Positions 11,202 to 60,739 of a stretch of 64,000 nucleotides of DNA are shown piece after piece. Within the stretch, counting starts at the first letter, position 1. Each line of letters opens with the position of its first letter. The DNA lies in assembly GCF_030384885.1 (NCBI RefSeq), contig NZ_CP128614.1; one strand, written 5' to 3'. The position numbers and the translations under genes are program-made. Below the pieces are notes generated by a model that was not told the origin of the DNA, made no database searches, and worked only from the letters and a program-made list of their open reading frames with translations. Source of the DNA: Escherichia coli (GTDB lineage: Bacteria > Pseudomonadota > Gammaproteobacteria > Enterobacterales > Enterobacteriaceae).

Positions 11202-11212
11202 AAAGTTACTTT
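11202..11212. promoter_or_regulatory. palindromic motif AAAGTTACTTT, copy 1
   Basis: exact 11-bp palindrome, 164 bp upstream of the minus-strand gene starting at 11038. Confidence 0.55.
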
Positions 11213-11394
11213 TCCGTAATAGTTAATTTCAGATCCTTCTTCCAGTTACGCTTCAGTATAAAACCGATACCCTCTAATTCAGCATCCTTCACGTTTAATA
11301 CGCTTCACTTTAAGGCAGGGCTTTTCGGTTGATATGAATTCTTTTTCCGGTTGCTGGACATGGGTTTCATCCTGATAGTTAAAATTGCAGGCTA

Positions 11395-11697
11395 TCAGTC
11401 ACCACCACCACCTCCTCCTCCTCCTCCTCCACCGCCACCATCACAACCACCAGCTATGCTATTTTCACCATTACAATCACCTCCGAGGGGGTTCAAATGG
11501 CTGCTCCCCTGTAGATGGTGTCCTTGCCAGATCGAACCCGAACCAGCGCCTCCTGAGCGTCTTTGCTTGCCCTGAGGCAATTGTGCAGGCTCACCAGCAC
11601 CGGCGGTCCCAAAAATGTCCCGGGCAATTTTATAAAGAAGGTAAAAAGGTACGCCCAGCATCATAAAAAAGATTACTGAAAATATTACACGTTCCAT
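11395..11697 (-). CDS. small membrane protein with C-terminal poly-glycine tail
   Basis: 100-aa ORF; N-terminal TM helix then a Gly-rich tail ending GGCDGGGGGGGGGGGGGD, encoded by a (GGN)n / (CCT)6 triplet repeat; plus-strand ORFs over the same repeat read as poly-Pro or poly-His, so the coding strand is uncertain. Confidence 0.35.
   Translation of the reverse strand: MERVIFSVIFFMMLGVPFYLLYKIARDIFGTAGAGEPAQLPQGKQRRSGGAGSGSIWQGHHLQGSSHLNPLGGDCNGENSIAGGCDGGGGGGGGGGGGGD
11399..11440. repeat. triplet simple-sequence repeat, (CCA)3(CCT)6 on the + strand
   Basis: caccaccaccacctcctcctcctcctcctccaccgccacc read directly. Confidence 0.8.
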
Positions 11698-12129
11698 TGA
11701 TGATCTCCTGTCTTGTGAGAGACCAGTTATATCAGGGTGATTCAGTATTTCCGTTTAGAAAAGAGTACTAATTTGGCCCTGTTCGATCTTAATTTGCCAT
11801 CCGGGAAAAAGTCATAGGGATAGGCCTGCCAGAGTCAATAACTTCCAGTGATCTGGAGGAGACCCCGGCTCTCTGAGCCCTCATGGATGGTACGGCTTTA
11901 CCCCCTGTAAACAGATTCACGTTCCGCAGGACAAACATCGACTACTGACGTCTCATATTTGCTGACGCTAATCCGACGTCTCATTGCCGTCTGCTTGTTT
12001 TCTTTAAAGGGTGTATTAGACGAATATCAAATCGGAATGGTAGGGGATGTGTGGGCACCATGCCCGGCCCTCTTTGAGCATCTGAGAGATTGGAGACCTA
12101 GCCGGGTAAGATAGCTACTTTCTTACGGG

Positions 12130-12498
12130 TTACCCTTCAAATCCAAAGACGAAACGGACGCTGCCGTTCTCCACGTGGAGACGCTTTACTTCTTCGACAA
12201 ATTCCTGGATCACCTCTCCGGCGTTATCGGGTGGTATGGCTGACAAAATTTCTTCCGAAGTCAGCCATGAGTATGAATGTTCACCGAATAAATCATCATC
12301 TTCGGACGGTATATCATCAGGTAATCCGCGTAATGCGTGGATAAAAACTGCTGATGTGCTCGCCCTTTCACGATCTACATCAAATCCGAGCCAGGCAAAG
12401 TGGAGATATGATCGGTCCCCTTTATAATTGCTTGATAAATTAATCCATTTACCAGGCTTTTCTTCCCTTTGAAATCGCCAGCAGATATCAACGCCCAT
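12130..12498 (-). CDS. hypothetical protein
   Basis: 122-aa ORF, acidic, no motif recognised. Confidence 0.4.
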   Translation of the reverse strand: MGVDICWRFQREEKPGKWINLSSNYKGDRSYLHFAWLGFDVDRERASTSAVFIHALRGLPDDIPSEDDDLFGEHSYSWLTSEEILSAIPPDNAGEVIQEFVEEVKRLHVENGSVRFVFGFEG

Positions 12499-12662
12499 TA
12501 AGAAACTCCATTACTATCGTTCGTATGAGATAACTATCATTTCAGAATACTATGACTTCTTCCCGTATAGAACTAATCGCTCACGCCAACTGGGCGAAGC
12601 CAACCGGTTCCGCCACTTCGCTCATTGGTTTTTAGGCGTAAGCACTGAAGCCAGTCTCCATG

Positions 12663-13205
12663 CTAACTGGCGAGCCTGCGAAAGTCAGACTCGTTGTTAT
12701 AAAGCGGCATATCGTAAGCGGTGTCTGAAATGAACATGCGGATCTGCTCAAGCGTCATGCCACAATGAAAACGGTTTACGCTCACATTGGCCCGGGGGAA
12801 GTCAGCACAAAACGCATTCAAAACATTTTCATGGACAATGCCAATGTTGATCAACGCAGCTGGCCCGTTGTCACGGAAGGATACGACACGGAATCCCCCA
12901 TACCAGCCTGAATGGGAGAAAAATGAAAATGCGCCGGATGCCAGACCATTAGACAGGTCATAGCGCAATTTCCCGCACAGAGACTGGCTGTCTTTGCTGT
13001 ACACGCGATTAATGAAAATACCGGGACCAACTTCTACCGGCTGCTTGTTGCTTGCTAAACACGGAAAGCCCACCAGCGAAACCTCCCTTTCTCCTGACCA
13101 GTTTACCTGATACCCGGCAGTGAGAAAGTCCGTCAGTTCTACGCCAGAAAGAGCATTAATGGCCGCGATATCGGTAGTCAAAATATTTACGTTTTTCATA
13201 TTCAT
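12663..13205 (-). CDS. hypothetical protein
   Basis: 180-aa ORF; next gene downstream of 13267..13704 on the same strand. Confidence 0.45.
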   Translation of the reverse strand: MNMKNVNILTTDIAAINALSGVELTDFLTAGYQVNWSGEREVSLVGFPCLASNKQPVEVGPGIFINRVYSKDSQSLCGKLRYDLSNGLASGAFSFFSHSGWYGGFRVVSFRDNGPAALINIGIVHENVLNAFCADFPRANVSVNRFHCGMTLEQIRMFISDTAYDMPLYNNESDFRRLAS

Positions 13206-13266
13206 CTCATCTTTATTCTAAAGTGCGTTTTTTGTCTATCAGCCCGAGGATTGAAAATTTGAATAT

Positions 13267-13704
13267 TTAATGTGACAGATAAATACCTGTCACTTTTTCA
13301 AAAACAGCCTGTAATTGAATATCGAGAGAGTTCATTTTAAAATCCACCAGCTCAGCTTTATTATCGCAAACCAAATAAAAATAGGAGTCAAATGCGTCTG
13401 TATCTTCATCTTTAAAAATACGGAAGGAATTAATTTTATCATGCCCTTCAAATTCGGCATGAATACCATAGCGAACCGAGCCGTCATCGAACTGAACAAC
13501 CCGTCGTACAGAATTAATCCGGACGTACTGTTTTAAGGCCCTCGCGAAATCGGCATTTAACGCCAACGCTCGTAAGATTGAATCAGCGGTTTCATTCTGC
13601 TTTTTACGATCGTATTCAAATATCCCACAGCCGGTGTTACGAAAGACCGGCTGAAGAGCATTAACCAGGTTGAAGGAATCCACGTTTCTGTCGTTTCTGT
13701 ACAT
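13267..13704 (-). CDS. hypothetical protein
   Basis: 145-aa ORF. Confidence 0.45.
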   Translation of the reverse strand: MYRNDRNVDSFNLVNALQPVFRNTGCGIFEYDRKKQNETADSILRALALNADFARALKQYVRINSVRRVVQFDDGSVRYGIHAEFEGHDKINSFRIFKDEDTDAFDSYFYLVCDNKAELVDFKMNSLDIQLQAVFEKVTGIYLSH

Positions 13705-13748
13705 GAGATATCTCCTGCCCCTCCGCTATACGAAGGGGCTTGATAGGG

Positions 13749-14045
13749 TTACTGCCAGGCTGCGATCACTTCTTCGCACTGGAAATGAGATAAGCACTGC
13801 TGGAGTAGAAGAGCCAGCACCGCTGTGTTAGGGACGCGATTGTTACACCACGCGTTGAAAAGCAGCTGCCATGGACCGGCATAATACCCGGCCAGTTTCT
13901 TTTTTTGTTTAGCTGTACGGCAGCGGGAAATGGCCTGCTGATAAAGGCTTTCATTCTCATCACCAGCCCGTTTTTGCAGAGTGCGATAAATATACGAATA
14001 AAGACTGTCAGAACAGTTTGAAGCGTACGCCAGTTGTTTTTTCAT
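13749..14045 (-). CDS. hypothetical protein
   Basis: 98-aa ORF. Confidence 0.4.
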   Translation of the reverse strand: MKKQLAYASNCSDSLYSYIYRTLQKRAGDENESLYQQAISRCRTAKQKKKLAGYYAGPWQLLFNAWCNNRVPNTAVLALLLQQCLSHFQCEEVIAAWQ

Positions 14046-14165
14046 AATACCTCCTGTTTAGAAGTATTATATGTAAACAGCCTCAGCGGCTAATAACCCG
14101 TAGCAATATAATTTGCATTTTTTCTATTTCTGAAGACGCTTTTTAAATTAATATTTACTGAGTTA

Positions 14166-14444
14166 TCACAACTTATTATTCTTCCCGTCTGCTGTTTTAT
14201 TAATCCCCCAGTTAGTAATCACGCCAAGTCGGCGCAATTTTTCACGTTGTTCATAAATAAAAAAATCGCCAAGGCAGTCTTTTAAAACTTCACTATCCTG
14301 ATATTTTATTTTTTGAAGCATCCTCGCAACTATGGCGCGTTTCAGGAATATGGCTGCATCAGACTCAAGCATTTGTGAGGACTGTCTGACGGTCTCCTGC
14401 ATGTCGACGATACTGCTGAGCTTTCGTCTGACCACGCTTAGCAT
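14166..14444 (-). CDS. hypothetical protein
   Basis: 92-aa ORF. Confidence 0.4.
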   Translation of the reverse strand: MLSVVRRKLSSIVDMQETVRQSSQMLESDAAIFLKRAIVARMLQKIKYQDSEVLKDCLGDFFIYEQREKLRRLGVITNWGINKTADGKNNKL

Positions 14445-14628
14445 AGTGTCCGGGAACCGCTTAGCGGCTGAATGTAACCCGCAACAACGTTACGCATTGT
14501 TTTACTCACTGCAATTTTCCATTTAAGTCTGTTTGTTCCACCAGCTGCTAACATCAGCGTTATTCATCCTGAGGTTTCGCCCGCGATTGACAGATCAGAG
14601 GCAGCATGGATGAAATTGCCAGAGTAGA

Positions 14629-14910
14629 TCACTGCATACGCGAATAGTGGTTTGTATTCAGTTCTGCGTTTGCCTGCTTTTCCAGTGCTGTCATAACCCG
14701 GCGGAGCATCGCCAGAGCCTGAACAGGCGAGCTCCCAAACTGCACTTTCACTTCAGCCGTATCATGATCCTGAATCAGGTCGAGTATATTCACTTCGATC
14801 CCTGCCCCGTTTTCATCTTTTGCCGTGCACTGAATACTTACCCGGGTCACCGAATCCGTCAGGACTGGCAGTGGGTTAGTTTTGTCTACGTTGATAACAG
14901 CCTTCTTCAT
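14629..14910 (-). CDS. hypothetical protein
   Basis: 93-aa ORF directly downstream of the ParB-like gene. Confidence 0.45.
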   Translation of the reverse strand: MKKAVINVDKTNPLPVLTDSVTRVSIQCTAKDENGAGIEVNILDLIQDHDTAEVKVQFGSSPVQALAMLRRVMTALEKQANAELNTNHYSRMQ

Positions 14911-14975
14911 TGCCCTGTTTCCCCTTGTCCTGAAAAAGTTACCGACCCGTCCGGATGGAGGGGTCGGTCAGAAAA

Positions 14976-16160
14976 TCATGACTGTCCCTTGTTCATCTTA
15001 TCAGCATGCTTACGCAGGTACTCTTTCAGGTCAGCATGAGCGTTGATGATATCGTTCATTTCATCATTGGTCAGAACAAGCGTGTAAGTATCAGTACTGA
15101 CAGATTCACCTTCTTTAAGCTTGGCTTCTTCAGCAATACGTTCAAAAATCGGGATCGCGGTGTCTGCAATGACGGTCACAGTCTTTTTGTTCAGAACGCT
15201 GGACATGGAAGGTGCTTTACCTGCCGGGTTCTGTTTAGGAGCGCTGTCCTTTGGAGCTGGAGCCGGTTCCTGTACCGGTGGCGTATCCAGCGTCTCCGTA
15301 TTGCTTTCATCGTTCAGTTGATCCGGTACCGGGGTGTTATCGGTAGTATCATCTGCCGGTTGCTCAGCACCGATGTTTTCCGGAGTCTGCGGATCTGCCA
15401 TGCGCTCTTCTACCTTGGCAGCTTTGACGAATTTCAGCGTGTTTTTCGTCGCCTTGCCATAGATGGAGATCGCTTTGTTGATGTTATCTACCGCATCCTC
15501 ACCGCTGTACATATACTCGTCCAGTGCAACGTACATGCTCACCTGATCGCTCACAAGCATGGTCTGTAGTTCAGAAGGCAGGTCCAGTACGCGAACCATC
15601 TGGCGAAGATGCTGCTCTGATTTACCACGTTTTTTTGCCAGTTCCGCAAAGGTCTTAGGCTCTTCTTTATCTTCAACCAGACGCTTAATTGAAAGCGCTT
15701 CAGCTACGACAGACAGCGCCAGGTTGGAGTTGCCGGTCAGGGTGAAGAGTTCTGCTTTTGAAGCGCTACCGCGAAACTCTTCGCAGCGAATACGAGTAAT
15801 GCGTTCACGCCCTTCTGCTTCCAGCTGGCGGTTTGCAATAGCGATGGAACGGATACGGCAAGCCCCCTGACGCAGTACAGGTACGCCATTAACCATCTGA
15901 ACAACGATAGGCGTCACGCTGAACGGGTCTTCCATGTAGGCATCGGCCAGGCTGTTCAGGTGTTCCACAACGTGAGGCATTGAATAGTAGAGCTCGCCCA
16001 TACCGGCCGTGCGGGTGTTAAAGCCTTCCTGCTCTACAACAACCGAAGGGTCAATGATAAGGCCGTTGCCTTTACGGGCACCGTTACCAGTGCGTTCCAG
16101 GTAACCACGAAGGCTGATTTCGTTGCTGTTGTTTTTTACTTCAGTTTCGATTGCGGACAT
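14976..16160 (-). CDS. ParB-like protein with an acidic, Pro-rich linker
   Basis: 394-aa ORF; N-terminal region with GFNTR and RIRSIAIANRQ resembles a ParB/Srx-type domain; central low-complexity acidic/Pro-rich segment; two copies of the palindromic motif upstream. Confidence 0.5.
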   Translation of the reverse strand: MSAIETEVKNNSNEISLRGYLERTGNGARKGNGLIIDPSVVVEQEGFNTRTAGMGELYYSMPHVVEHLNSLADAYMEDPFSVTPIVVQMVNGVPVLRQGACRIRSIAIANRQLEAEGRERITRIRCEEFRGSASKAELFTLTGNSNLALSVVAEALSIKRLVEDKEEPKTFAELAKKRGKSEQHLRQMVRVLDLPSELQTMLVSDQVSMYVALDEYMYSGEDAVDNINKAISIYGKATKNTLKFVKAAKVEERMADPQTPENIGAEQPADDTTDNTPVPDQLNDESNTETLDTPPVQEPAPAPKDSAPKQNPAGKAPSMSSVLNKKTVTVIADTAIPIFERIAEEAKLKEGESVSTDTYTLVLTNDEMNDIINAHADLKEYLRKHADKMNKGQS

Positions 16161-16250: not shown

Positions 16251-16261
16251 AAAGTAACTTT
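16251..16261. promoter_or_regulatory. palindromic motif AAAGTAACTTT, copy 2
   Basis: 91 bp upstream of the ParB-like gene start. Confidence 0.55.
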
Positions 16262-19876: not shown

Positions 19877-19913
19877 TAAAAGAAAAAAGGGTTCCTCCGC
19901 TTTAGAGGAACCC
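19876..19913 (-). terminator. rho-independent terminator (minus-strand sense), probably the displaced hok terminator
   Basis: stem GGGTTCCTC...GAGGAACCC followed on the minus strand by a U-run (plus strand AAAAAA at 19883-19888); adjoins the IS186 insertion site. Confidence 0.5.
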
Positions 19914-19969
19914 TTTCAAAAGGTGCCGATGGCATACTAATCCACACCCTGAAAAGAGGGGGGTTGCCC

Positions 19970-21309
19970 CCATAAGCGCTAACTTAAGGGTTGAACCATC
20001 TGAAGAATGCGACGCCTCGGTGCCTCGTTAAGACGATGCCTCGCGTTCTTCAATTGCGTTTTGTAGGCTGTCAGGGATACTGTCCCACGAATGGCCACCT
20101 GTAAGCTCCAGATGACCATTTTTGTTATTCTCCACAACGAGTTAGTTCTTCTTTTCGGATCCGGCACTTCTGGGGGGGAAATCCAGCGATGGCTGGATTA
20201 TGTCGTCAATTAAAAATGCGGCGAGTAGATTAGCAAATATCCACGCTTTCGCGAGTTCAGGTTCCTTTGCACGCAAAGCATCCAGGTGCAGCAAACTTTT
20301 GAGCCGCTTAAAAGCCAGTTCAATTTGCCATCGCAGACGGTAACAATCAGCCACTTGCTCTGCTGAATATTCATCTTCCGGTAATGATGTTAGCAATAGC
20401 ACATGGCCCGCTGCTTCCAGCGTTTCCGCCTGAACTACTCGTCCTTTTCGACGATTCTCGCTGAGCAGTCGGGTTTTACTGATTAATGCTTTTTCGGGAG
20501 GAAGTGATACGGCAATGAGACGTGCCGGAAAGGGAGCTCCGGCTTTTTTATTACCTGAATTGCCTATCATTACAGTGGTTTCACCGTTCTTACCGCAATC
20601 CAGCCCGCGCAGAAAACCCATCATGTCAAAGCGCATTCCTTCTGCAGTTAACCAGCGCAATCCTCGCCAGTGAACCCGGACGATATAATCAGCTTCTCCA
20701 AAAGCAAGTGAGCGGATACATTCGGGACGCGAACCGAATCCCCGGTCAGCAATGCGTATCTCGTCTGCCGTTTGCGCAAATCGGTCCAGCCGTTCAGCGT
20801 CTCTGCTGTCGGTTAGCTCAAAATCAGTGAACTGACAGGTATGAGGATCATATCCCATATGTAGTCGCCATTCAGCGCTGCCGCCCCCGGGCGCACTGAT
20901 TGCTGTTCCATCGACAAGACGCAATCTCTTTCCGCTTGTACAACCCGTAACTGCGGCGCGTACAGCAAGTGTTTGTGCGGCAAGTATGCCAAACCAGTCG
21001 GCGGCATTCCGCAGCCGCTTCAGGAGAGCCACGTCAGATAATGTTGCAACGTCATGGAGCTGAGCCCATGCAGTGACTTCACGTAATGACATCCCCCCGG
21101 GGCCGTAAGCCAGCCCCAGACGTAGCAGAGTTGCAGCATCACGAATTTCGCGGCGGCGGGTTAGAGCCCCGGCATTACGTGCCGAAGTATCCAGTTCTTC
21201 GGGCTTACCAATATGGGCCAGAATTGCTGACCAGTTATCGTGAGAGTAATTCATCGGCACGTTAAATCATATCAGGCGTAATACCACAACCCTTAAGTTA
21301 GCGCTTATG
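19970..21309 (-). mobile_element. IS186 (IS4 family) insertion sequence
   Basis: about 1340 bp bounded by perfect inverted repeats CATAAGCGCTAACTTAAGGGTTG (19970-19992) and its reverse complement (21287-21309); flanked by a direct duplication of about 12 bp (GGGGGTTGCCCC) within a GC-rich palindromic target. Confidence 0.85.
20142..21260 (-). CDS. insL: IS186 transposase (DDE, IS4 family)
   Basis: 372-aa ORF filling the IS; N-terminus MPMNYSHDNWSAILAHIGKPEEL recognised as IS186 transposase from memory. Confidence 0.85.
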   Translation of the reverse strand: MPMNYSHDNWSAILAHIGKPEELDTSARNAGALTRRREIRDAATLLRLGLAYGPGGMSLREVTAWAQLHDVATLSDVALLKRLRNAADWFGILAAQTLAVRAAVTGCTSGKRLRLVDGTAISAPGGGSAEWRLHMGYDPHTCQFTDFELTDSRDAERLDRFAQTADEIRIADRGFGSRPECIRSLAFGEADYIVRVHWRGLRWLTAEGMRFDMMGFLRGLDCGKNGETTVMIGNSGNKKAGAPFPARLIAVSLPPEKALISKTRLLSENRRKGRVVQAETLEAAGHVLLLTSLPEDEYSAEQVADCYRLRWQIELAFKRLKSLLHLDALRAKEPELAKAWIFANLLAAFLIDDIIQPSLDFPPRSAGSEKKN

Positions 21310-21332
21310 GGGGTTGCCCCCCTCTTTGTCAG

Positions 21333-25821: not shown

Positions 25822-26025
25822 TTAAATCTGTGAAGTATTTTTGAGAGATTTTTTGCGATCCAGATGCCGGGCAACAATGGTTCCGATAACAAGTAGCATG
25901 ATGACCGCACTGAAGAAGGTGCTGTCAGGGACGCCCTGGAAAAAATCACTGAAACTGTAAACAATAAAAATCAATGCGCAAAAATAGAAAACGATACGAA
26001 CATAAGGGGTAAAAAACATTTTCAT
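25822..26025 (-). CDS. small membrane protein
   Basis: 67-aa ORF with two hydrophobic helices; palindromic motif 141 bp upstream. Confidence 0.45.
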   Translation of the reverse strand: MKMFFTPYVRIVFYFCALIFIVYSFSDFFQGVPDSTFFSAVIMLLVIGTIVARHLDRKKSLKNTSQI

Positions 26026-26165: not shown

Positions 26166-26176
26166 AAAGTTACTTT
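26166..26176. promoter_or_regulatory. palindromic motif AAAGTTACTTT, copy 4
   Basis: 141 bp upstream of the minus-strand gene starting at 26025; context AAAGTTACTTTCCTGGCTG. Confidence 0.55.
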
Positions 26177-27900: not shown

Positions 27901-28221
27901 TTATGCTTCCTGACACCGTGTGAACGCAATCTTCGTCTGGATGCGTTCATAGATGGAAAACTGCCTTTCAATGGAACCGGCATTAGACAGTAATTCATGA
28001 AGCTCAGCAGAGTCTGTATCGGGAACGATAGCTACAGAAACTCCATATCTCCGTCCAATTTTGATTAGGTGCGCAAGCTGTTCTTTTTCGGATTCTGTGA
28101 GCATTGCCAGATCTCTTCCGGACACCTGCTCTATAAACGAACCAAGGTTTTTGGGAAAAAAGGGTTCGGCATCAGAGTTATGTGCTGGGCGCGTCTGCGG
28201 CTTATCGAAGCTATTGGGCAT
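27901..28221 (-). CDS. hypothetical protein
   Basis: 106-aa ORF; palindromic motif 152 bp upstream. Confidence 0.45.
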   Translation of the reverse strand: MPNSFDKPQTRPAHNSDAEPFFPKNLGSFIEQVSGRDLAMLTESEKEQLAHLIKIGRRYGVSVAIVPDTDSAELHELLSNAGSIERQFSIYERIQTKIAFTRCQEA

Positions 28222-28372: not shown

Positions 28373-28383
28373 AAAGTAACTTT
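28373..28383. promoter_or_regulatory. palindromic motif AAAGTAACTTT, copy 5
   Basis: context AAAGTAACTTTCCCGGATG; 152 bp upstream of the gene starting at 28221. Confidence 0.55.
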
Positions 28384-30731: not shown

Positions 30732-30971
30732 TCAGTATTCCTCCTGAACCCCATTAGGCTCTGTTGTGATTTCATATTTAATACCGCCAGGTGCTCCCAC
30801 AGCGTCCGCGACCGACTCACACAGCAGCGAGAGATCGTTGAGGGTCATTGGGTGTTCAATGTCCAGCGTGAAGAGTTTCCCGGCTTGCTTGGCGGCTGTC
30901 TTGTCAGCATGTTCAGCATTAAAAAGGTATACGGTGTGTTTTTCCTGAGCGGGGGTATTTTGATTTTGCAT
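30732..30971 (-). CDS. small acidic protein, paralog of 25543..25767
   Basis: 79-aa ORF with the shared block PMTLNDLSLLCESVADAVGAPGGIKY; palindromic motif 133 bp upstream. Confidence 0.5.
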   Translation of the reverse strand: MQNQNTPAQEKHTVYLFNAEHADKTAAKQAGKLFTLDIEHPMTLNDLSLLCESVADAVGAPGGIKYEITTEPNGVQEEY

Positions 30972-31103: not shown

Positions 31104-31114
31104 AAAGTTACTTT
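31104..31114. promoter_or_regulatory. palindromic motif AAAGTTACTTT, copy 6
   Basis: context AAAGTTACTTTTCTGGATG; 133 bp upstream of the gene starting at 30971. Confidence 0.55.
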
Positions 31115-31220: not shown

Positions 31221-33176
31221 TTATACGACCTGCCTGACCATCCTCATCAGAAGGCGGTTTAACAGTCCTTTCGCTGTCGGGCGATTGCTATCGACATAGT
31301 AAAAACCTGTTTTGGTCGTACCGTGAGCACTGCTCAGCACCCTCAGTTCCCAGATAACGTCACGGATAACGCCGCCATTTTCTGGCTTAAGGCATTCAGA
31401 TAAATGGCGCATGAAACGAGCTCTTACGGCACGGTAATAGCGGAACTCCTCTGGCTGGTTAGTATTTTCTTTCACCCGGAGTCGCTGGTTACACAGAGTT
31501 AGAACTGCATCCATCATTCCCGCCTTCAGCTTCGCCTGGATCGCACCTTGTTGCTGTTCCCTCTCACCTTCGAGTAACGTTAAGATTCTTTCTCCGAGTG
31601 CCGTCTTGTTGTGTACGTGCAACTGTACACAGGCAGCTACGCATGCCCAGAATCTGAACTTTTTTATCTGTCCACGCAATTTCCGGGCTACAACCTGACG
31701 GTATGCAGTATCGCTGAGTATTTTAAAACGCCGACTGGCAACCAGCTCTGGAAGCGACACTCTTTCGCCTATCCCCAGGCGGGAAAAGGTTTGTCCCCGT
31801 TGTGCGAGACGATGATAGACAGCGCCCTTCCCTTTTGAAATTCGGACCGCGCCATAACGAAGAAGATACTGAGCAGCAGTCGTTGGAGTAAACTCACCGT
31901 CAGCGATGCTCTGGCGTAACCCGTCGTATTCATGCCAGATAATCCAGGACGCCGTATCTTCTTCAACAGTCAGCTCATCCTCTTCCTCGAATGCCACGAC
32001 GACAGAACTGCTCTCTCCGGTCTTTAGGCTACGTGAAGCCCTGGGGTCAGCCTGCCCGTCAAAATAGGTCATCAGCGGCAACGTATCAGTCAGTCCATCA
32101 TAAGCTGTACCGAACCGGCCTCCGGGCAGTTTCATCCAGAGTGGAGCTGGCATTGGTGTACGGGCCACAGGCAGCATGTCAGGCTCATCCTCAAGAAGGT
32201 CCAGATCGGCCTCTTCCCAGACTCTGCGATAGATCTCAATTGCCCGAAACGGGCGAGGGTTGAAACAGTGCAACGACCAGAGGAAATCAACGTGGATCAC
32301 GTTTGCTTCATGTACAAGCCGAAATTGTGGCTCAGCCATACGACGGTTATAAGCCGTATCGTCCACCTCGCCGGAAAGTAGCTTTCTGCGATGCTTTGCC
32401 GCACGTCTGGCTTCAACATAATCAAGGCTGCAACAGACATGAAAAAGACGTTCAGTCAGGGACGAAGAAAAGATATTGGGTTGAAGACGCACATACCCGC
32501 CTTCGAACACTTTACGACCGATATAATCCCGCAGGCTCCAGTCGTACTGGATCTTAGAAAGAAATCGCTGAAGACGACTTAGGCCTGCCTGATAACCATA
32601 TTTCTCAGGGTCAGTGCGAAGGAGCGTTTCCATTGAATGGTCAACCCCTACGGCTGTGCAAAGCGAGCACCCATATCTAGCCCCACAAGCTGAGGTTCGC
32701 GTGGGTTTCTCCGGCGACCAGATACACTCTCCGGTGGCGTCTTTATAAAGCGTTGCCAGGCTGAAGTTATCCGGCATAAAGCTTGGTAAAGGGAAGCGGG
32801 ATTCGGAACCACAGGCCATTAGAAAAGACCAGATGTCCTGAGTGCGCCACTCCTTTACTGGATAGAGTTCACCACCGTGCTCAGTCAGGGTTACTTTCCT
32901 CGCCTGCCCTCCCATTTTGAGGATATTTCCGGCCCTTCGGGCACTTTCATCATCCCTGGAGCCCAGCATCAGGCATACCCTGCTTCGTACGGATGCCGGG
33001 GCGTTTTTTAGATAACGAGCTTTGGCCTTGCGCAGGGGGGCGATTTTGTAGTCACAAACTACTACCACACTGTTACAGTGTAGAAATTCTGGAAGGCGGT
33101 GCCAGTGTTGGTTTAGGATAATGTTAACAATTTTTCCAGAGTTTTCAGAGAAAAGAGATTTTGAGTGACAAACCAC
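31221..33176 (-). pseudogene. PAPS-reductase-family (DndC/IbrA-like) gene lacking its N-terminal P-loop region
   Basis: 651-aa ORF with GSRDDESARR, EWRTQDIW and CGARYGCSLC motifs of the PAPS-reductase fold but no SGGKDS P-loop; in-frame stop 6 codons upstream of the annotated GTG start (read directly), so the N-terminal part is not encoded here. Confidence 0.5.
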
Positions 33177-37053: not shown

Positions 37054-38809
37054 TGCAGATAGGACAGTTAGGCTGATGTGGCAAAAACTGAGGTTTCAGT
37101 GAACGTCCACCTTCTAACATATGCTCGTTGTAAGTCCATTTGAGGTCAGGCTCAAGAGTACTCAAGACTGCCTGTTGAGCCAAAGATGCCGTTATATTAC
37201 TCACCGCCGCATCATAAGATGTGTATGTGCTACCACAACTTTTATTTTTTTCACTTGAGATATCGAGGTTGTAAAATCGGGAATCGATACCATTATGGTA
37301 TTTTGCTGGATTAGTAACCATACATCCATAGCAGCTTCGGCCATCATCGATTAAAACTTTGGATGCTCGTCCATTACCATCATTGAAGGCGTGGATAATA
37401 ATAGGTCTTTGCTCACAGGGAATCTGTCTTACGATAGCCGCAATACGCTTGGAAACAGGAGGTCGACCTGTTGCATCGATAATAATGTCATATTTTTTCA
37501 TAACATCAATACTGATGGGGAATTGCTTATAAAATCCTTCTACTCTGGTCTGTAAATGCACAGAGTCTTGAAGTTTTGTTGCGAGTGAGAGCGCTTTGGA
37601 CCACCCAAAATCATGTGAAGGTAAAATGTGACGACCAAAATTACTAGGACGGTAGATATCATCATCAAATAAATGCAGTAAACCTTTCCCACAACCGGCA
37701 CCGTTTCGGAGTAACAATTCTGCAATATACCCACCAATGGTTCCGCAACCAACTAAAGCTATACGCTTATCGGATAAGCATTCTTTGCTTCTCCTTTGGG
37801 CATTTCGGCTAAGGAGGGTTGCCATATCAGCGCGAACCACACCCAATCGTTTATATGAGGCGCATACATTTTTACCAGCTAACAATGTGGCAAGTTTGGA
37901 CGTTGATTTTTTAGCTGATCTCTTGTGCCTTCTGAAATCAACAGCGTTAGTATTTAACTCAATATAGATGGCAAATATATCTTGATTGAAAATGTCGAAT
38001 AAAAAAATATATCTTTTCTTCCCCTCTGTTGTGATGTAGTGAACCACTCTGTCCCTGGCATTATGGTCCGCATTTTCTAGCCAGTCCAGTAATTCGCGGA
38101 ATGAAGTCGGTGGCCATTTCATCCCAGCAAGACGATTAGGGTTTACAGAAATATAATGAGTGTTGATAGAATAATTTTTCAAAGATTCTTGACGAAGGTA
38201 TCTTTGATTAAGCCATTTTTTTAAAATGGTTTCAGAGTCCTCGGGAGAGGATTCTTGGACAGTTATATATTCTAGCCTGGGAGAACCATCAGGAAATGTT
38301 GACTCTGAAAACAGTGTCTTAAGTCTGATCCCGCGGCTTGCTTTTGATAAAATATATAAACTATCACTAGGTCGCCAGTAAGTTGCAAATTCACCTTCGA
38401 GTTCTCTCTTATCATTCAGGCCATTAGTAGCGGCTAAAACTGAATTAATCAGTGTTCGGTGAATCTGGGCATCGACTTCTTTGTACGTACCCTCAAGGTT
38501 GTTTGGATCCCAATCAGCTTCCAACTGCTCTACATAACAGAGAATTCCTTCTTGGCTTATGTGAGGCATAAGGCGATCTCTGAACTTTTCAGGCAGATCA
38601 ACTATGCAAGCTAATGGCAGTTCCGTAAAAGGATCTGGCCGAATAACTAGTGCTACATTGAAATTTCCGGCTTCGGTTTCATATTCTTTCGTATAATAGC
38701 CTTTCAGGCGTTCCTGACTGTGTAGGAACGCCTTTTCAGGAAGTTTGCGGGCTAGCGTATAGCGATACCCGCACTCTATCATCATTTTATGGAGCCTTCC
38801 TTCCTCCAT
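37040..38809 (-). CDS. cap2: CBASS Cap2 (E1/E2 ubiquitin-like conjugation enzyme fusion)
   Basis: 589-aa ORF; Rossmann/ThiF-like ALVGCGTIGGYIAELLLRNGAG in the C-terminal half; start overlaps the CD-NTase stop. Confidence 0.75.
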   Translation of the reverse strand: MEEGRLHKMMIECGYRYTLARKLPEKAFLHSQERLKGYYTKEYETEAGNFNVALVIRPDPFTELPLACIVDLPEKFRDRLMPHISQEGILCYVEQLEADWDPNNLEGTYKEVDAQIHRTLINSVLAATNGLNDKRELEGEFATYWRPSDSLYILSKASRGIRLKTLFSESTFPDGSPRLEYITVQESSPEDSETILKKWLNQRYLRQESLKNYSINTHYISVNPNRLAGMKWPPTSFRELLDWLENADHNARDRVVHYITTEGKKRYIFLFDIFNQDIFAIYIELNTNAVDFRRHKRSAKKSTSKLATLLAGKNVCASYKRLGVVRADMATLLSRNAQRRSKECLSDKRIALVGCGTIGGYIAELLLRNGAGCGKGLLHLFDDDIYRPSNFGRHILPSHDFGWSKALSLATKLQDSVHLQTRVEGFYKQFPISIDVMKKYDIIIDATGRPPVSKRIAAIVRQIPCEQRPIIIHAFNDGNGRASKVLIDDGRSCYGCMVTNPAKYHNGIDSRFYNLDISSEKNKSCGSTYTSYDAAVSNITASLAQQAVLSTLEPDLKWTYNEHMLEGGRSLKPQFLPHQPNCPICNEHN

Positions 38810-40110
38810 CAGCCGCTTACCATCGTGGTGTTAATTTTTACAGGCGCCTGCTCCTTAGACGGGGAGATTTGAAATGCAGGAGCCGCAGCAATTGAAGTTA
38901 TTAACGAGGCATTAGTTACTCGTTTTCCAAACGCATTGTTTATCTTACGTAATGCTTCTTCCCTGCTACTTGAACTCTCTGCATCAAGCAAAATCCCCTC
39001 TAAATTTCTCATGGTTTCAACGATGGTTCTCTGATGTACGTTATGATCGCATTCGGCAGGGAAAAGTAACTTTTCATCAGTATCGTCGGGACTTTCCAGA
39101 CCGCGACAGAATTCATTAGGTAGTAATCTTGCAACTAGTTTCATCGTCCCTGTGAGGTCTGAACCATTATGTGCTTCTCTGTCGAGGATGTTTACAACTG
39201 CAGCCATCAGGCTAATAGATGAAGGACCTCCCACTTCCCATTGGGCATCTCTCCAGGCCTTCATAAAGCGGCAAATTGAACGGAGATGACCGCCAATACG
39301 CTTGCAACTATCATTAAACCAATCTTCAACAATTTTGGGGTCGCTGATCGACCACCTTCTTGCACCCTGACGCAGCGCTAAATTAACTTTGTCAGGTTCT
39401 ACTAGATATGCCTCGCGCATATCCATGTTTGCTGATAAAGACTCGAACATGGAGTCGGCACTTTTTATGATGTGTGCTGAATCGGCTGCAGTTTGTTTGG
39501 TCTGAAATTGCTCTTTGGGGATCGCATACATCGGTACGTCGATGTGTGTTTTCTCGTGAGGAATTTTGATGCGTCCGCAGGTGTTTTTTTCTTCATATAC
39601 CCATCCATCGTTTTCAGCCTCTAACGATTTCAGTGACGTATCAACGAGCAGAAGAAGTAAGGTGTGCCCAATACTGGGTTCGGATTCAAAGACCGTCATT
39701 GGCATGTAGGTGCCGTCATCGATATCCATTTCCTGACCCGGGTGAAAAGGTCTGTTTAACGTATCGTATTGAAAACTCCCTTGGGTCCAGAAGCGAGGTT
39801 GAAATTTGATGAAGTCATCACGAGCTACATCTTCCATTTCAAAAATGAGTCGAGCGAGAGTCTCACGGTCTGAGGGAGAGAGGTAGCGAACATTAGTTTG
39901 CTCCAGTTTAAATCTAACGCTTTCAAGCGTCAGAGTTTGCTTTCTGGCGTCTGTAGCAATTTGACGAGCTTCTTTAAACACATCCCTCGTTCTTTCACGG
40001 ACTTTCTGGCGAAGTGCTTTCAGTTTGTCGGATTCAGTCTTACCCAATTTTAGTTTACTGATTAAGCCATCCACACTATGGCTGTAGTAATTGTTAAAAT
40101 CCCAACGCAT
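38809..40110 (-). CDS. dncV: CD-NTase, DncV-like cyclic dinucleotide synthase
   Basis: 433-aa ORF; NTase motif QGSFQYDTLNRPFHPGQEMDIDDG; long stretches match Vibrio cholerae DncV as recalled (MRxxWNFxxYY N-terminus, RFWTQGSFQYDTLNRPF, C-terminal NxAFGxRVTN...STMVSG). Confidence 0.85.
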   Translation of the reverse strand: MRWDFNNYYSHSVDGLISKLKLGKTESDKLKALRQKVRERTRDVFKEARQIATDARKQTLTLESVRFKLEQTNVRYLSPSDRETLARLIFEMEDVARDDFIKFQPRFWTQGSFQYDTLNRPFHPGQEMDIDDGTYMPMTVFESEPSIGHTLLLLLVDTSLKSLEAENDGWVYEEKNTCGRIKIPHEKTHIDVPMYAIPKEQFQTKQTAADSAHIIKSADSMFESLSANMDMREAYLVEPDKVNLALRQGARRWSISDPKIVEDWFNDSCKRIGGHLRSICRFMKAWRDAQWEVGGPSSISLMAAVVNILDREAHNGSDLTGTMKLVARLLPNEFCRGLESPDDTDEKLLFPAECDHNVHQRTIVETMRNLEGILLDAESSSSREEALRKINNAFGKRVTNASLITSIAAAPAFQISPSKEQAPVKINTTMVSG

Positions 40111-52783: not shown

Positions 52784-53032
52784 TTATGAGTATACGCCAT
52801 GCTCTAAACGCAAAATTAATGATACGACCATTAAACCTCCCTCTTCAGGGTCAATGGCTTCAGTGGGTGTTTTCCAGGCTAATGCTCTGTTAGAGGTATT
52901 GCACCATTTCAAAGCAGAATCTCTGTTCCCCTCAAAAAGCGCTAACGCTTTTAGATGTAGAACACTTTTGGTCATCATCTGTGATCCTGAATGACTTTTT
53001 AGTACTTCAAAAAGGTTGCTTCGTAGAGTCAT
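52784..53032 (-). CDS. DUF2384-like protein (toxin-binding domain of Xre/ParS/MbcA-type antitoxins)
   Basis: 82-aa ORF; DSALKWCNTSNRALAWKTPTEAIDPEEGGLMVVSLILRLEHGVYS fits the recalled DUF2384 consensus (W..P.ALGG.P..L..T..G...V...L.RIEHG); no RES-type partner ORF downstream; palindromic motif 115 bp upstream. Confidence 0.5.
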   Translation of the reverse strand: MTLRSNLFEVLKSHSGSQMMTKSVLHLKALALFEGNRDSALKWCNTSNRALAWKTPTEAIDPEEGGLMVVSLILRLEHGVYS

Positions 53033-53146: not shown

Positions 53147-53157
53147 AAAGTTACTTT
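53147..53157. promoter_or_regulatory. palindromic motif AAAGTTACTTT, copy 7
   Basis: 115 bp upstream of the gene starting at 53032. Confidence 0.5.
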
Positions 53158-53396: not shown

Positions 53397-53969
53397 CTAC
53401 ACTAACGTGTCATGGTAGGTTGAGCACTGACGGGTTGAAGAATTAGTCCAGGTCGGAAGTCCACGTCCAGTCAGAATGCGGCCTACCCAGCTCTGCGTAA
53501 GAGACGGTTGGGCGACAAGGACTGTGACCGGTAGCTGGTGTTCAGCAATGAACATTCTAAGCTGGTTGAGAACCTGTGAAGCCTGATAGTGCATCTCAGG
53601 GTTTTCGATCAGCGTATCGGACATCTGAATGAAATGATGTTCGCTGATATTTGTGCCGTTACGTACTGCCCTGATCAATGCCATCAGAAATAGGTGAAGA
53701 AGAGAATGGGAGTCTTTACCGCCACTGTATCCCACGCACATCGTCCATCCGTCCGTAATAGCCTGATAAATAGCAGATGTGGCTGACGTGACCAGAGAAG
53801 AAAGACTCACAGTCTCCTTTTCATCGGTATAGTTCAGATCGGCATCGGTTGTCAGGGTCTCCCAAACATCAGCCCATTTATCATGTTTCAAAATGGCAGC
53901 ATTAGCCGCCTCAGGAAAAATAACTTCTGAGGGTAATTCAAGGAATGAGTCACTTTTTTCAATAAACAT
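53397..53969 (-). pseudogene. N-terminal fragment of a PAPS-reductase-family (DndC/IbrA-like) gene
   Basis: 190-aa ORF with P-loop YSGGKDS and DT/PE motif (SDTLIENPE) but none of the downstream fold motifs; those are found in the 31221..33176 ORF. Confidence 0.5.
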
Positions 53970-55983: not shown

Positions 55984-56310
55984 CTAAAACGCAGGGTTGC
56001 CATCGAGGAAGCTCATTGGCTGGCCAATAGCGGATGCCACCCTGAGAATTTCACCTGGTGTGGCATAGCGCAGCATTTCTGAGCGTCCAAATTTCTGATA
56101 CTCATCTACTGACATCTTTCTCCACTCGGGGTGAGGATCTTTTCCGCACAGTGACCAGTTGCTTTCAGAGGAATCACGACGGAGAACGTACACATCAAGC
56201 GAGGCTGTAAGCCCGCTTCCATATCCCCGCTGCGCTACAATACGAACCTGAGAACCATCGTCGCGTTGCAACGTCTGGGTTAATTTCGTGATAGGATCCT
56301 GAGAATGCAT
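55984..56310 (-). CDS. hypothetical protein
   Basis: 108-aa ORF; palindromic motif 207 bp upstream. Confidence 0.45.
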   Translation of the reverse strand: MHSQDPITKLTQTLQRDDGSQVRIVAQRGYGSGLTASLDVYVLRRDSSESNWSLCGKDPHPEWRKMSVDEYQKFGRSEMLRYATPGEILRVASAIGQPMSFLDGNPAF

Positions 56311-56516
56311 GCCATTTACCTCGTTTTTAAAAGAATTACCGTAAGTAAATGATACCGAATCGAGAATTCTGGCTAATAGGTCAGAAGAAAAAATATTGCA
56401 TATTTTTGAAGTGTAGGATAATGATTAGAATAAAATGGCCTGAATAAATCGTTAGCTTTAACTCTGCTTATTTCAGAAAAACTCTGAATTAGTAGTGATG
56501 GAAAACGACGCGGTGA

Positions 56517-56527
56517 AAAGTAACTTT
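56517..56527. promoter_or_regulatory. palindromic motif AAAGTAACTTT, copy 8, with extended arms
   Basis: GGTGAAAAGTAACTTTTACACC is a 22-bp near-perfect inverted repeat centred on the core. Confidence 0.55.
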
Positions 56528-57152
56528 TACACCGCAATTCAGAAAAAAGTTTCAGTTAGTCACATTACGAATAACCCGGCTTACTTTCGCATGTGCGTTC
56601 CCCTGCATGTTAAAGTAAAGCCCTCCGGGCAGACTCGTCGCCCACTTAACGCCTCGCTCAGCCATACGCTTCGGTGTTTCCAGCCAACCACGAGGAATAT
56701 TGCCCGGAACGTTACCGATAACCCGTCAAATGCATGCTGCTACCCGGATGCCGCCGGGAATATCGCATTTGGATTCAACAATATGCATGACCTCAGATAA
56801 AGCACCATGCCGCTGGACATGATCGCCAATGTGCAACTCGATAGGAGAAGCCATTTCTGAATCTGACTTCATATCTGTCCACCTTTAATTTAGAAACCGT
56901 CTAAATTACCAAATTAGTTAATCCAACAACATCTGTATCACAACCATCAATTTGTTTTTGTTGGGTCTATATCGTAGAAACAAGTGAATAATGAATACAC
57001 TCGTTAATACAGACAACCGGAAATGAATGACTACCTGATTATCTCAGCGGTATATGCTAAGCCGTTAATATTGCCATTCTCTGGTGGAACCACTGCTAAA
57101 TGAATAAACCGTTTGTCGCTTCAAACCACTTTATCAAAACCGTTAACTTGCA

Positions 57153-59192: not shown

Positions 59193-59335
59193 AATTCCAG
59201 TAGTTTTGTTACGCTGAACCTACCACAAACCCGCTCTTAATGAAGGCATCAGGAGCGATAGCGATCTTTGAGGCATCGTTTAAAACAGCGGCATCCTGTA
59301 ACAGACACCCGATATTTTTTTTAATGCCGCAGGTG

Positions 59336-59593
59336 TTAAAGGTAGCGTTGCAAAGTTGCAACATCTTCAGGGGCAACCTCCACGCAGCTCCTGACACTGT
59401 AGTGATTTTCGCCGTTGTAGTCATAAACCCCACCGTCTTCAAAACTCAGCTGTTCAACCTCGCCAGCACACTCGGAAATCAGTGCCGTCTGGCAAGCATT
59501 TTTCTCACAATCGCTGACGAGTATACGAACATAGCTTTTCTCATGGTCGCCGTTACGGTTCTGGATCTTTACGATAAAGTGTTTTTCAGACAT
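59336..59593 (-). CDS. hypothetical small protein
   Basis: 85-aa ORF. Confidence 0.4.
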   Translation of the reverse strand: MSEKHFIVKIQNRNGDHEKSYVRILVSDCEKNACQTALISECAGEVEQLSFEDGGVYDYNGENHYSVRSCVEVAPEDVATLQRYL

Positions 59594-59657
59594 TTGTGCC
59601 TCCAGCTCAGGTTGAGGTTAATTTAGCGTTGCCCCGGTTCACCGGGGCAAGAATAAA

Positions 59658-60086
59658 TCAACCCTTAATGAAATTGTGCCCCCAGGTGTTAGGCTTAAAT
59701 GCCTGCTCTTTGATATATGTTTTCATTACCTTGCAGGTTTTTTTCAGGGCTTTGGTATTGGCATCGGTTACTGGGATAAAATGGCGAGAATGACGGTTTT
59801 CCCGGTACTGCTTATCAGCGTTTGGGTCAATTGCTTCGCTTTGCAGGAGCCCTTCGTGCCTGCCAATTACTATTACGTAGTTCATTTCACCTGAAACACG
59901 ATCCGTGAGTAATTGAAGGGAAATATCAGCTGCTCGCGTGGCCTGGCTTGCAGATATTTTTGCATGCAAGAAAGCCCCCTTTCTGAATTTGGCCGGAGTT
60001 AGCCCTGTAATATCCTCAACACTAAAATTAAGTGAGGAAAGAATTGAAAATAAGTCGCAGCTAATGACTTCAGTATTATTAGGCAT
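59658..60086 (-). CDS. hypothetical protein
   Basis: 142-aa ORF. Confidence 0.45.
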   Translation of the reverse strand: MPNNTEVISCDLFSILSSLNFSVEDITGLTPAKFRKGAFLHAKISASQATRAADISLQLLTDRVSGEMNYVIVIGRHEGLLQSEAIDPNADKQYRENRHSRHFIPVTDANTKALKKTCKVMKTYIKEQAFKPNTWGHNFIKG

Positions 60087-60180
60087 TTTACCCGTCCCCG
60101 TCCATATTCATGATACGGTAATGATACCAGGTCGATATCATTACCTAATAACTTGGTGAAAGAAAATCTGTAATTTTTAG

Positions 60181-60558
60181 TTAACTAAAATTAATAGTCT
60201 CAATACTGCTCAAGAATTCTTTTTTTACGTCCGGTGTAAAAGGTATACGTTCAATGTATTTATAAAGTGTCGCAAATGTTTTGGGTTCAATGTTTCGGGA
60301 GATAATGTCATCAATCGGATCTTCGAACATATTGATAAAGATATCGACATGCTGCTCTCCGCTTTCTGATGCCTTTGAAAGAAGACTGACCACTTCAATG
60401 TAGCGATTATCCTGCTCTGCAATGAACAACCAGTGCCCTTCGTTAAAGGCGGGTGCAGCGCTGTAGCGTTTAACAACAATTTCTGAAAGATTATATCCTG
60501 CCTGATTCAGCAGATTATTAAAGTTGAGTTGAGTTGAAATCACGTCTAACGTTTTCAT
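60181..60558 (-). CDS. hypothetical protein
   Basis: 125-aa ORF; palindromic motif 171 bp upstream. Confidence 0.45.
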   Translation of the reverse strand: MKTLDVISTQLNFNNLLNQAGYNLSEIVVKRYSAAPAFNEGHWLFIAEQDNRYIEVVSLLSKASESGEQHVDIFINMFEDPIDDIISRNIEPKTFATLYKYIERIPFTPDVKKEFLSSIETINFS

Positions 60559-60728
60559 AAAACCTCCTTTTCATCTGTACTTATTATACTGTTACCCAAC
60601 CCCCAGCTAATAACCTCCCAGCAAATTTTCAGAAAAAAAACACCGCCTTTTATTTAAGATTGAACACATCCTTTTTTAATACCAACAATGATTATGAAAC
60701 CACAATGTAAGTGAAGCGCCATTATGGA

Positions 60729-60739
60729 AAAGTAACTTT
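60729..60739. promoter_or_regulatory. palindromic motif AAAGTAACTTT, copy 9
   Basis: 171 bp upstream of the gene starting at 60558. Confidence 0.5.

Follow-up and report, generated by a model that had tools for sequence, protein, structure and literature searches.

Why does one short palindromic word of DNA recur so often along a single stretch of a bacterial genome, and what reads it? The question is raised by a window of 64,000 nucleotides from Escherichia coli (NCBI RefSeq assembly GCF_030384885.1, contig NZ_CP128614.1), in which a first-pass annotation had noticed nine copies of the palindrome AAAGTWACTTT and had ascribed them to one regulator of the cargo genes of an island or else to structured promoters. 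There is no chromosomal island here: the window is the backbone of an IncHI2 conjugative plasmid (R478-type, MOBH/MPF_F) adjoining the Tra1 transfer genes, with 100% identity to plasmids of E. coli, Salmonella, Klebsiella and Enterobacter. Plasmids of the IncHI1, IncHI2 and IncHI1B groups are important vehicles of mcr-1, mcr-9, NDM and typhoid multidrug resistance. Expression of their genes is known to be controlled nearly as a single unit, and a DNA element able to mediate this co-regulation has not been described so far. The palindrome turns out to belong to the whole backbone of these plasmids, where it is maintained by selection, and we would give an even chance to the reading, drawn from sequence comparison, that it is the docking or loading site of an IncHI-encoded protein of the ParB/KorB family forming a dispersed network.

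Distribution of the palindrome on IncHI plasmids

The window begins within mobI of the Tra1 region; the relaxase gene and traD follow, and then a long series of small genes, mostly uncharacterised, that all point the same way. It contains 12 exact copies of AAAGTWACTTT, whereas 0.06 would be expected by chance from dinucleotide-preserving shuffles, none of 100 of which reached 12; with one mismatch tolerated, there are 17 matches against 1.8 expected. All nine copies noticed at first are present, and they lie in non-coding DNA 91–217 bp upstream of the first open reading frame (ORF) of a minus-strand unit, in line with the 90–220 bp originally given. Two of them do precede the gene of a ParB-like protein, here called paralogue A, as had been claimed. 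The statement that every copy is intergenic holds for these nine but not for the full set, since the three overlooked copies are intragenic. The copies, one near-copy and the genes needed to place them are as follows.

1129..4281, plus strand: MobH relaxase gene
3132..3142: central-C variant AAAGTCACTTT, inside the MobH relaxase gene
4281..6365, plus strand: traD coupling-protein gene
4570..4580: exact palindrome, intragenic in traD, overlooked earlier; kept in traD of the IncHI1 plasmid R27 (s173222 to R27 103600)
6300..6310: exact palindrome, intragenic at the 3′ end of traD and 60 bp before the next gene start, overlooked earlier; conserved in R27 (s174952 to R27 101870)
11202..11212: exact palindrome, non-coding, 164 bp upstream of ORF 10754..11038 (minus strand)
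14976..16160, minus strand: paralogue A, an orphan ParB-fold protein of 394 amino acids and the candidate binder
16251..16261: exact palindrome, proximal and of autoregulatory type, 91 bp upstream of the paralogue A start codon
16377..16387: exact palindrome, distal, 217 bp upstream of paralogue A, with the flank TCCGGTTG
26166..26176: exact palindrome, non-coding, 141 bp upstream of ORF 25822..26025 (minus strand)
28373..28383: exact palindrome, non-coding, 152 bp upstream of ORF 27901..28221 (minus strand)
31104..31114: exact palindrome, non-coding, 133 bp upstream of ORF 30732..30971 (minus strand)
39063..39073: exact palindrome, intragenic in ORF 38809..40110 (minus strand), within a defence insertion; overlooked earlier
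53147..53157: exact palindrome, non-coding, 115 bp upstream of ORF 52784..53032 (minus strand), about 300 bp inside the right end of the same insertion
56517..56527: exact palindrome within an imperfect longer inverted repeat, 207 bp upstream of ORF 55984..56310 (minus strand)
60729..60739: exact palindrome, non-coding, 171 bp upstream of ORF 60181..60558 (minus strand)

Is the palindrome a property of this region? The complete IncHI2 plasmid pKP121-1-mcr (239 kb) carries 42 exact copies spread across its whole backbone, R27 (180 kb) likewise carries 42, and on both plasmids AAAGTWACTTT is the commonest 11-mer. The density in the window (12 in 64 kb) equals that of the whole plasmid (42 in 239 kb), so that the palindrome is not specific to the window region and the enrichment once supposed for an island disappears. 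It is, however, specific to the backbone: none occurs in the 47.6 kb IS26/integron resistance region of pKP121-1-mcr, and none in three 50 kb samples (150 kb) of the E. coli K-12 chromosome. A similar density across the whole genome, irrespective of gene starts, had been named at the outset as refuting evidence. A similar density is indeed seen across the replicon, which tells against specificity for an island, but it does not extend to the host chromosome, and the placement of the copies is not indifferent to genes, since they are enriched in non-coding DNA. Any evenness in the spacing of the sites is a weak signal (on R27, coefficient of variation 0.73 vs 0.97 ± 0.14). Two IncHI1B/FIB plasmid fragments of 41 and 40 kb contain 13 and 18 copies, respectively; five are present in 40 kb of an IncHI1A-type region, and seven each in 21 kb of a Yersinia plasmid and 21 kb of another lineage; the word is invariant among these Enterobacterales plasmids, whose proteins have diverged to about 35% identity. 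Palindromes are also retained (five in 25 kb) by pCFS3292-1 (NZ_CP026936.2), an IncHI2 derivative typed as non-mobilizable and lacking a relaxase. When a genome collection was scanned with AAAGTWACTTTN{20,50}AAAGTWACTTT, the matches listed were unrelated tandem repeats in Bacteroidota, Clostridia and cyanobacteria and gave no guide to its distribution.

This distribution bears directly on the original proposal of a classical operator through which one dimeric repressor would control the cargo genes of this region only. The nine copies upstream of minus-strand units in the window speak for such a regulon. Over the whole of pKP121-1-mcr and R27, however, the same density is found in the tra, oriT, ter and immunoglobulin-like gene regions, about 40% of the copies are intragenic and conserved, and there is no fixed spacing to promoter hexamers, all of which contradicts a cargo-gene regulon and makes it highly improbable. 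What survives of the proposal is the symmetry of the binder: the exact palindrome, its upstream enrichment and the purifying selection on it fit a symmetric dimer, though not one serving island cargo alone.

A second explanation would have the word recognised by a host factor, or by an enzyme of DNA-modification or restriction type. Its invariance across plasmids so diverged, all of them in Enterobacterales, would suit a common host protein, and several methyltransferases are encoded near the palindromes of the window. On the other hand, zero copies in 150 kb of chromosome means that no host regulon is evident. Ten specified bases far exceed the known specificities of methyltransferases and restriction enzymes, and the word is not known to match the consensus of any enterobacterial transcription factor or nucleoid protein. 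This explanation is therefore very unlikely.

What is the full extent of the element? It is a 13-bp palindrome of 6-1-6 form, AAAAGTWACTTTT (A-AAAGTWACTTT-T), the outer A at −1 being present in 28 and the outer T at +1 in 25 of the 42 copies on pKP121-1-mcr. Variants with a central S add seven sites on pKP121-1-mcr and four on R27. The apparent plus-strand orientation of the palindrome in the window is not general. Beyond the 13 bp, a 19-nucleotide context, AAAGTWACTTTYCYGGWTG, had been attributed to four copies; three have it exactly and the fourth, at 26166, with one mismatch. An extension of the core by YCYGGWTG was considered and rejected, as it is a one-sided flank found at only about 15 of 122 pooled sites and so defines a subclass. 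This flank, tCCnGG(t/a)TG, directly adjoins the palindrome at window positions 16377, 26166, 28373 and 31104 and at R27 positions 67018, 92113 and 142406; it could be the half-site of a partner protein or a relic of duplicated promoter modules. The 22-bp inverted repeat described at 56517 exists but is imperfect (GCGGTGAAAAGTAACTTTTACACCGC), with arms that are 90% complementary and a one-base asymmetry. Scans of the IncHI plasmids for 5-1-5 and 10-bp palindromes gave no other over-represented palindrome.

Placement and conservation of the sites

How are the sites placed with respect to genes? On pKP121-1-mcr, 25 of the 42 copies are non-coding, although non-coding DNA makes up only about 21% of the plasmid (binomial p = 4.7e-8), and most of these precede a start codon by 80–230 bp. 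Two palindromes flank the intergenic space between mobI and trhR in the oriT region, and another lies in the divergent region between parM and trhO; others precede htdT, trhF, terE, several genes of immunoglobulin-like proteins and many small ORFs. Comparison with PHROGs assigned no function to the small genes directly downstream of the palindromes in the window. The remaining 17 copies are intragenic; they are read in all three frames and encode different peptides (KVTL/F, SNF, KLLL), which indicates a constraint on the DNA rather than on the protein. This constraint can be followed between plasmids. Among 21 sites that can be aligned between IncHI2 and R27, all ten fixed bases are kept in 19, where about 0.8 would be expected by chance from flanks that are 72% identical; in each of the two exceptions a single base differs. 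Such conservation is a strong phylogenetic footprint of purifying selection.

The relation to promoters is looser. Upstream regions aligned on the motif show no fixed spacing to −35 and −10 boxes. Good TATAAT boxes, where visible by eye, are located 25–30 bp before the ATG, and the palindrome would then sit roughly 100–190 bp upstream of the promoter. Because about 40% of the sites are conserved within genes and no fixed spacing to promoters exists, this is not a classical regulon of promoter-overlapping operators.

It had also been suggested that the palindromes are parts of structured promoters of the leading region, i.e., Frpo-like or ssi-like promoters or priming signals acting as single strands. 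The one-directional array of small ORFs beside Tra1 and oriT does resemble a leading region, and the DNA at 56311–56800 folds unusually well (z about −3). As single-stranded DNA, however, seven of the eight motif-bearing intergenic regions fold no better than their shuffles (z from +1.3 to −1.9). The 11–13 bp unit, with a 5-bp stem and a loop of one nucleotide, cannot form a hairpin, and copies occur all round the plasmid and inside genes. These results largely dispose of the suggestion as a general account, and its probability is accordingly minimal. The region 56311–56800 is the sole one of the eight with an unusually stable fold (z of −2.7 on the plus strand and −3.5 on the minus strand); nested inverted repeats, TCTGAATT...AATTCAGA and GCGGTGAAAA/TTTACACCGC, surround its palindrome, and it could be a genuine structured element, for example an ssi-like or Frpo-like signal or a terminator.

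Since IncHI plasmids already have a master circuit, could the palindrome be its DNA target, read by the activator pair TrhR/TrhY or by their antagonist HtdA? When htdA is mutated, derepression at 25°C extends to 139 of the 181 R27 genes that are expressed, 106 of them non-tra genes. The genes that are unaffected (transposon, tet, cit, mucAB and parAB) lie in regions that also lack the palindrome, as do the stretches upstream of mucAB and parA. Exact palindromes precede the H operon (mobI), and a central-S variant precedes trhA in the AC operon. The correspondence fails elsewhere: no site, even with one mismatch allowed, accompanies the TrhRY-dependent F operon on either plasmid, the Z operon has none in R27 and the AN operon has none, whereas the HtdA-independent R operon does have a palindrome. 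Neither TrhR, TrhY nor HtdA has a DNA-binding domain recognisable in Pfam or NCBIfam, HtdA is reported to act at the protein level, and conserved intragenic sites would be unexpected for an activator of promoter boxes. It is thus quite unlikely that the circuit itself reads the word, but the palindrome network and the HtdA-TrhR/TrhY circuit may be layers of one network.

An orphan ParB-fold protein as candidate binder

Which plasmid protein could bind such a site? Each IncHI plasmid encodes three orphan ParB-like paralogues (A, B and C) besides the separate ParB of the Par1 partition system, and sites accompany ParB-fold genes of the plasmid itself. Of these proteins, paralogue A is the best candidate, with a likelihood somewhat short of even. 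Its N-terminal domain is of ParB/Srx type and is followed by a DNA-binding domain of the HTH_ParB family; beyond these, a disordered stretch of about 65 residues and a helical C-terminal domain are predicted. It is matched by Pfam HTH_ParB (E = 1.5e-5) and by TIGR00180 parB_part (E = 5e-7, below the curated cut-off). In an AlphaFold2 model, the confidence score pLDDT is above 90 for residues 20–255; residues 256–321 are predicted as the disordered linker, and the predicted C-terminal helical domain (residues 325–393, pLDDT only 55–78) has no match to Pfam KorB_C. Foldseek matches of the model all belong to the ParB family of cytidine triphosphate (CTP)-hydrolysing clamps (E = 2e-8 to 1e-6 over about 220 columns), the top ones being Myxococcus xanthus ParB-CTPγS, the RK2 KorB-KorA-DNA complex (8qa9), Noc-NBS, Caulobacter crescentus ParB-parS and Spo0J; among them the KorB-KorA-DNA complex superposes best (template modelling score 0.65).

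The recognition helix of paralogue A, SEQHxR(Q/K), is strictly conserved down to 44% identity, and S..H.R is kept even at 35%, in parallel with the invariance of the DNA word. In five lineages, two to six palindromes are located upstream of the paralogue A gene. The proximal one, measured from motif centre to ATG, is 96–121 bp from the start in R27, KP-p1, the Yersinia plasmid and a further lineage (L142). An unrelated element of 55% guanine-plus-cytosine content encodes a homologue with the SEQH helix and has a near-cognate site, AAAAGTTAATTTT, about 110 bp upstream of that gene. By gene order, the paralogue A gene of R27 (92336..93541) is probably R0104, which is well expressed at both 25 and 37°C.

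More remote homologues were also found. One is an orphan protein of the IncC plasmid pNDM10505 (19944..20882), whose recognition helix, SAEHVR, is similar to that of paralogue A. In another element (L146, 9186–9758), about ten copies of AAGAAAGTAAACGA occupy 1 kb directly upstream of the gene of a remote ParB-like homologue with the helix TVEHVRQ. They are arranged as 20-bp tandem repeats with one inverted pair, and have the core AAAGTAA in common with the IncHI word. These may be iterons of the adjacent replication-type gene, so that co-variation of helix and site among remote homologues is only suggestive.

Does paralogue A serve partition? No parA adjoins its gene, and separate Par1 (parAB) and Par2 (parMR) systems exist. 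An IncHI2 derivative apparently without the gene persists and a stability scan implicates only incC, so that a role as partition ParB was rejected. The element incC was itself considered and set aside, as it belongs to an FIA-like replicon and is unrelated.

If paralogue A is the binder, the roughly 42 sites per plasmid would constitute a backbone-wide network for it. From sites 80–230 bp upstream of many operons, including its own, it could act on promoters over a short distance. By analogy with relatives of the same fold, this action would proceed by loading of a ParB-type clamp followed by sliding or spreading, and the protein could either repress, like KorB, or relieve silencing by H-NS, like VirB; the intragenic sites would provide further loading points. 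We infer the identity of the binder, its nucleotide dependence and the direction of its regulatory effect from these comparisons. A more far-reaching version, which we regard as somewhat unlikely, is that a partition-independent clamp, one of the three paralogues, loads at about 42 invariant sites, patrols the entire backbone and sets the expression of nearly all operons, possibly by modulating H-NS/Hha silencing. Such a clamp would be the missing DNA-level component of the temperature-dependent HtdA-TrhR/TrhY circuit, and, at the scale of a plasmid, the counterpart of Noc or VirB and not of a centromere.

Several observations weigh against the proposed network with paralogue A as its binder. 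In a profile alignment to Bacillus subtilis ParB, its Box II reads GACRIRS where ParB has GERRFRA: the equivalents of Arg80 and Arg82 are invariant, but those of Glu78 and Arg79 are lacking, and Box III has an invariant GN instead of EN; the position of Box I is occupied by GFNxR. These departures in Boxes II and III make CTP-dependent clamping uncertain, and nucleotide-dependent clamping by paralogue A, judged from its sequence, is plausible but uncertain. The derivative apparently without the gene is pCFS3292-1, in which the best tblastn match is paralogue B (31.7%), and yet it is maintained; deletion scanning of R27 found that only incC is needed for stability. Any function of paralogue A is thus not essential for maintenance. 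A sigma-70 scan of the upstream regions performed no better than shuffles (29 vs 25.5 expected), and word-enrichment analysis found no second dispersed, KorA-like motif common to R27 and IncHI2, although a degenerate motif could escape it. The remaining points concern other proteins as binders: expression of paralogue B (R0042) is among the highest of all R27 genes and rises under conditions promoting conjugation, B-like genes have a palindrome-type site 80–130 bp upstream (exact in the lineage L147), and the scattered sites of IncA/C plasmids are bound by the partition ParB and not by the orphan homologue of paralogue A.

Another plasmid protein might therefore read the word: paralogue B, paralogue C (R0037), the Par1 ParB acting at dispersed centromeres, or a non-ParB repressor not recognised as such. 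Paralogues B and C have the ParB-fold signature GFNxR...RQGxCR in common with A, and the upstream site and high expression of B mean that B, or several paralogues jointly, could be the binder. The evidence on the other side is that the recognition helices of B and C drift between lineages that have the invariant word. As for Par1, its ParB is a different, type Ia-like protein, no palindrome occurs upstream of parAB, which has a large repeat array of its own, and parAB expression is independent of the backbone-wide circuit. On balance a binder other than paralogue A, taken from this group, is unlikely. Upstream of paralogue B, the same one-mismatch variant, AAAGGTACTTT (AAAGTACCTTT on the other strand), is present about 81–95 bp away in both IncHI2 and R27 (pKP121-1-mcr 233287 and R27 45096); its conservation suggests a deliberately weaker site.

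Known dispersed-site systems, and other features of the plasmids

Are there precedents for a network of this kind? The closest system by mechanism is KorB-OB of RK2, and the closest by plasmid lineage is that of IncA/C. In RK2, 12 identical 13-bp odd palindromes lie from 4 bp to more than 1 kb from promoters, and KorB is a CTP clamp that slides (PMC11790492). The likeness extends to the site (OB, TTTAGCSGCTAAA, and the IncHI element, AAAAGTWACTTTT, are both 13-bp odd palindromes); to its identical copies dispersed over the backbone, near promoters, tens to hundreds of base pairs away, far from them or within genes; to the predicted layout of paralogue A, in which an N-terminal domain, a DNA-binding domain, a long linker and a C-terminal domain follow one another as in KorB; and to the presence of sites at the gene of the candidate binder itself. 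Identical palindromes confined to the backbone, in proximal, distal and intragenic positions, were found on both IncHI plasmids examined, with none in the resistance region, as expected of a KorB-OB-type network. The differences are that IncHI plasmids have 42 sites instead of 12, that the candidate is an orphan without an adjacent ParA and with the non-canonical Box II sequence GACRIRS, that no partner operator like those of KorA or TrbA was found in IncHI, and that identity to KorB is only about 18%.

The 14 parS palindromes of IncA/C plasmids, each 22 bp long, are likewise dispersed, with four inside ORFs; the protein that binds them, the KorB-domain ParB of parAB053, is also a repressor (PMC10954446). 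The transfer systems are related to those of IncHI (MOBH relaxase, MPF_F), and the 12–14 sites are similarly scattered in the conserved backbone and mostly intergenic. This ParB represses its own promoter, and its sites adjoin activator boxes. Unlike in IncHI, the core is TTTCACATGTGAAA and the binder is a partition ParB; IncHI has about three times as many sites. In 40 kb of the IncC plasmid pNDM10505, the 22-bp inverted repeat with the core TTTCACATGTGAAA was found seven times, at the positions listed below, and AAAGTWACTTT was absent. The published IncC parS, aACTTTCACATGTGAAAGTt, has AAAGT and ACTTT as its outer arms; both pentamers are those of the IncHI palindrome, arranged the other way round.

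pNDM10505 293: IncC parS copy
pNDM10505 3877: IncC parS copy
pNDM10505 4336: IncC parS copy
pNDM10505 9651: IncC parS copy
pNDM10505 12987: IncC parS copy
pNDM10505 24031: IncC parS copy
pNDM10505 27446: IncC parS copy

VirB, the anti-silencing protein of the Shigella virulence plasmid, resembles the proposed network with its virS sites in that an orphan ParB-family protein is encoded on a large, AT-rich, H-NS-silenced and thermoregulated enterobacterial plasmid; the palindromes at which it loads precede promoters by as much as 1 kb or more, so that it exerts its effect from afar (PMC10770331). It differs in activating a limited virulence regulon from a handful of sites with another sequence. 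Noc, of the nucleoid occlusion system of Bacillus subtilis, is, likewise, a ParB paralogue decoupled from partition, with tens of palindromes (NBS) over a whole replicon, and the model of paralogue A matches Noc-NBS structures; Noc is, however, chromosomal, binds the membrane and has a role in cell division. HerB/YfjB of F-like plasmids is an orphan CTP-binding ParB-like protein encoded among genes of leading-region type (PMC13370423), but its monomer of about 71.5 kDa has an extra dimerisation domain, D4, and it binds the host chromosome with no identifiable motif, whereas IncHI has a sharp motif that is on the plasmid and not on the sampled host chromosome. What would set IncHI apart from the known systems is a likely binder decoupled from partition, the presence of three paralogues, a number of sites three to four times higher, the unusual Box II and the lack of an evident KorA-type partner site.

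A literature search on the palindrome and on the function of these ParB-like proteins found no description of either, the motif string leading only to unrelated papers, and a preprint on the comparative genomics of IncHI plasmids mentions no motif, palindrome or ParB. A 13-bp word present in about 42 copies, invariant in the family and absent from the sampled chromosome, is a concrete and mutable handle on the regulation of these plasmids. It also offers a role that can be tested for orphan ParB-like proteins, a class made topical by KorB, VirB, BisD and HerB. Possible uses of the word are as a signature of the IncHI backbone and as a decoy or titration target, in the way SGI1 uses IncC parS.

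Two other enriched words were examined as a second dispersed motif, and both were rejected. The first, AAAGCATTTG, represents the RepHI iterons, which form AAAGCATTTGNATGAATG arrays with a period of about 42–44 bp flanking the gene of a RepB-family initiator. The second, CTGGCGATTAAGGGGGTTAAAT, is a local repeat array beside parAB and the second most repeated word family, with about ten copies in IncHI2 and about 20 in R27. Its array may fall in the gene-free region of about 3–4 kb between trhC and parA, a location taken from the annotation gap only; if there, it would be a candidate for the Par1 centromere or for an incompatibility repeat array. The coordinates are as follows.

R27 38388-40482: AAAGCATTTGNATGAATG array
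pKP121-1-mcr 1147-1488: AAAGCATTTGNATGAATG array
pKP121-1-mcr 238887-238952: AAAGCATTTGNATGAATG array
pKP121-1-mcr ~11636-15473: gene-free region between trhC and parA
R27 ~25338-28465: gene-free region between trhC and parA

The window itself is interrupted by variable cargo.

~33055-53454: defence-type insertion of about 20 kb, splitting a PAPS-reductase-family gene into the fragments 31221..33176 and 53397..53969

The genes of this insertion include those of a cyclic-oligonucleotide-based antiphage signalling system (CBASS; E2/UBC, DncV-like cyclase and phospholipase), a DEAD-box helicase, a helix-turn-helix regulator, a diguanylate cyclase and an Xre/MbcA antitoxin, and its sole full-length match is in pMY490-mcr-9 (99%). 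Despite being variable cargo, it holds two exact palindromes (39063 and 53147) where about 0.02 would be expected. Elsewhere in the window, within the intervals 20142–22959 and 21333–21548, a gene of a Hok-family type I toxin is flanked by insertions of IS421 (IS4-like) and IS150 (IS3-like), and strong terminator-like hairpins occur at 19885–19917 and 21607–21641.

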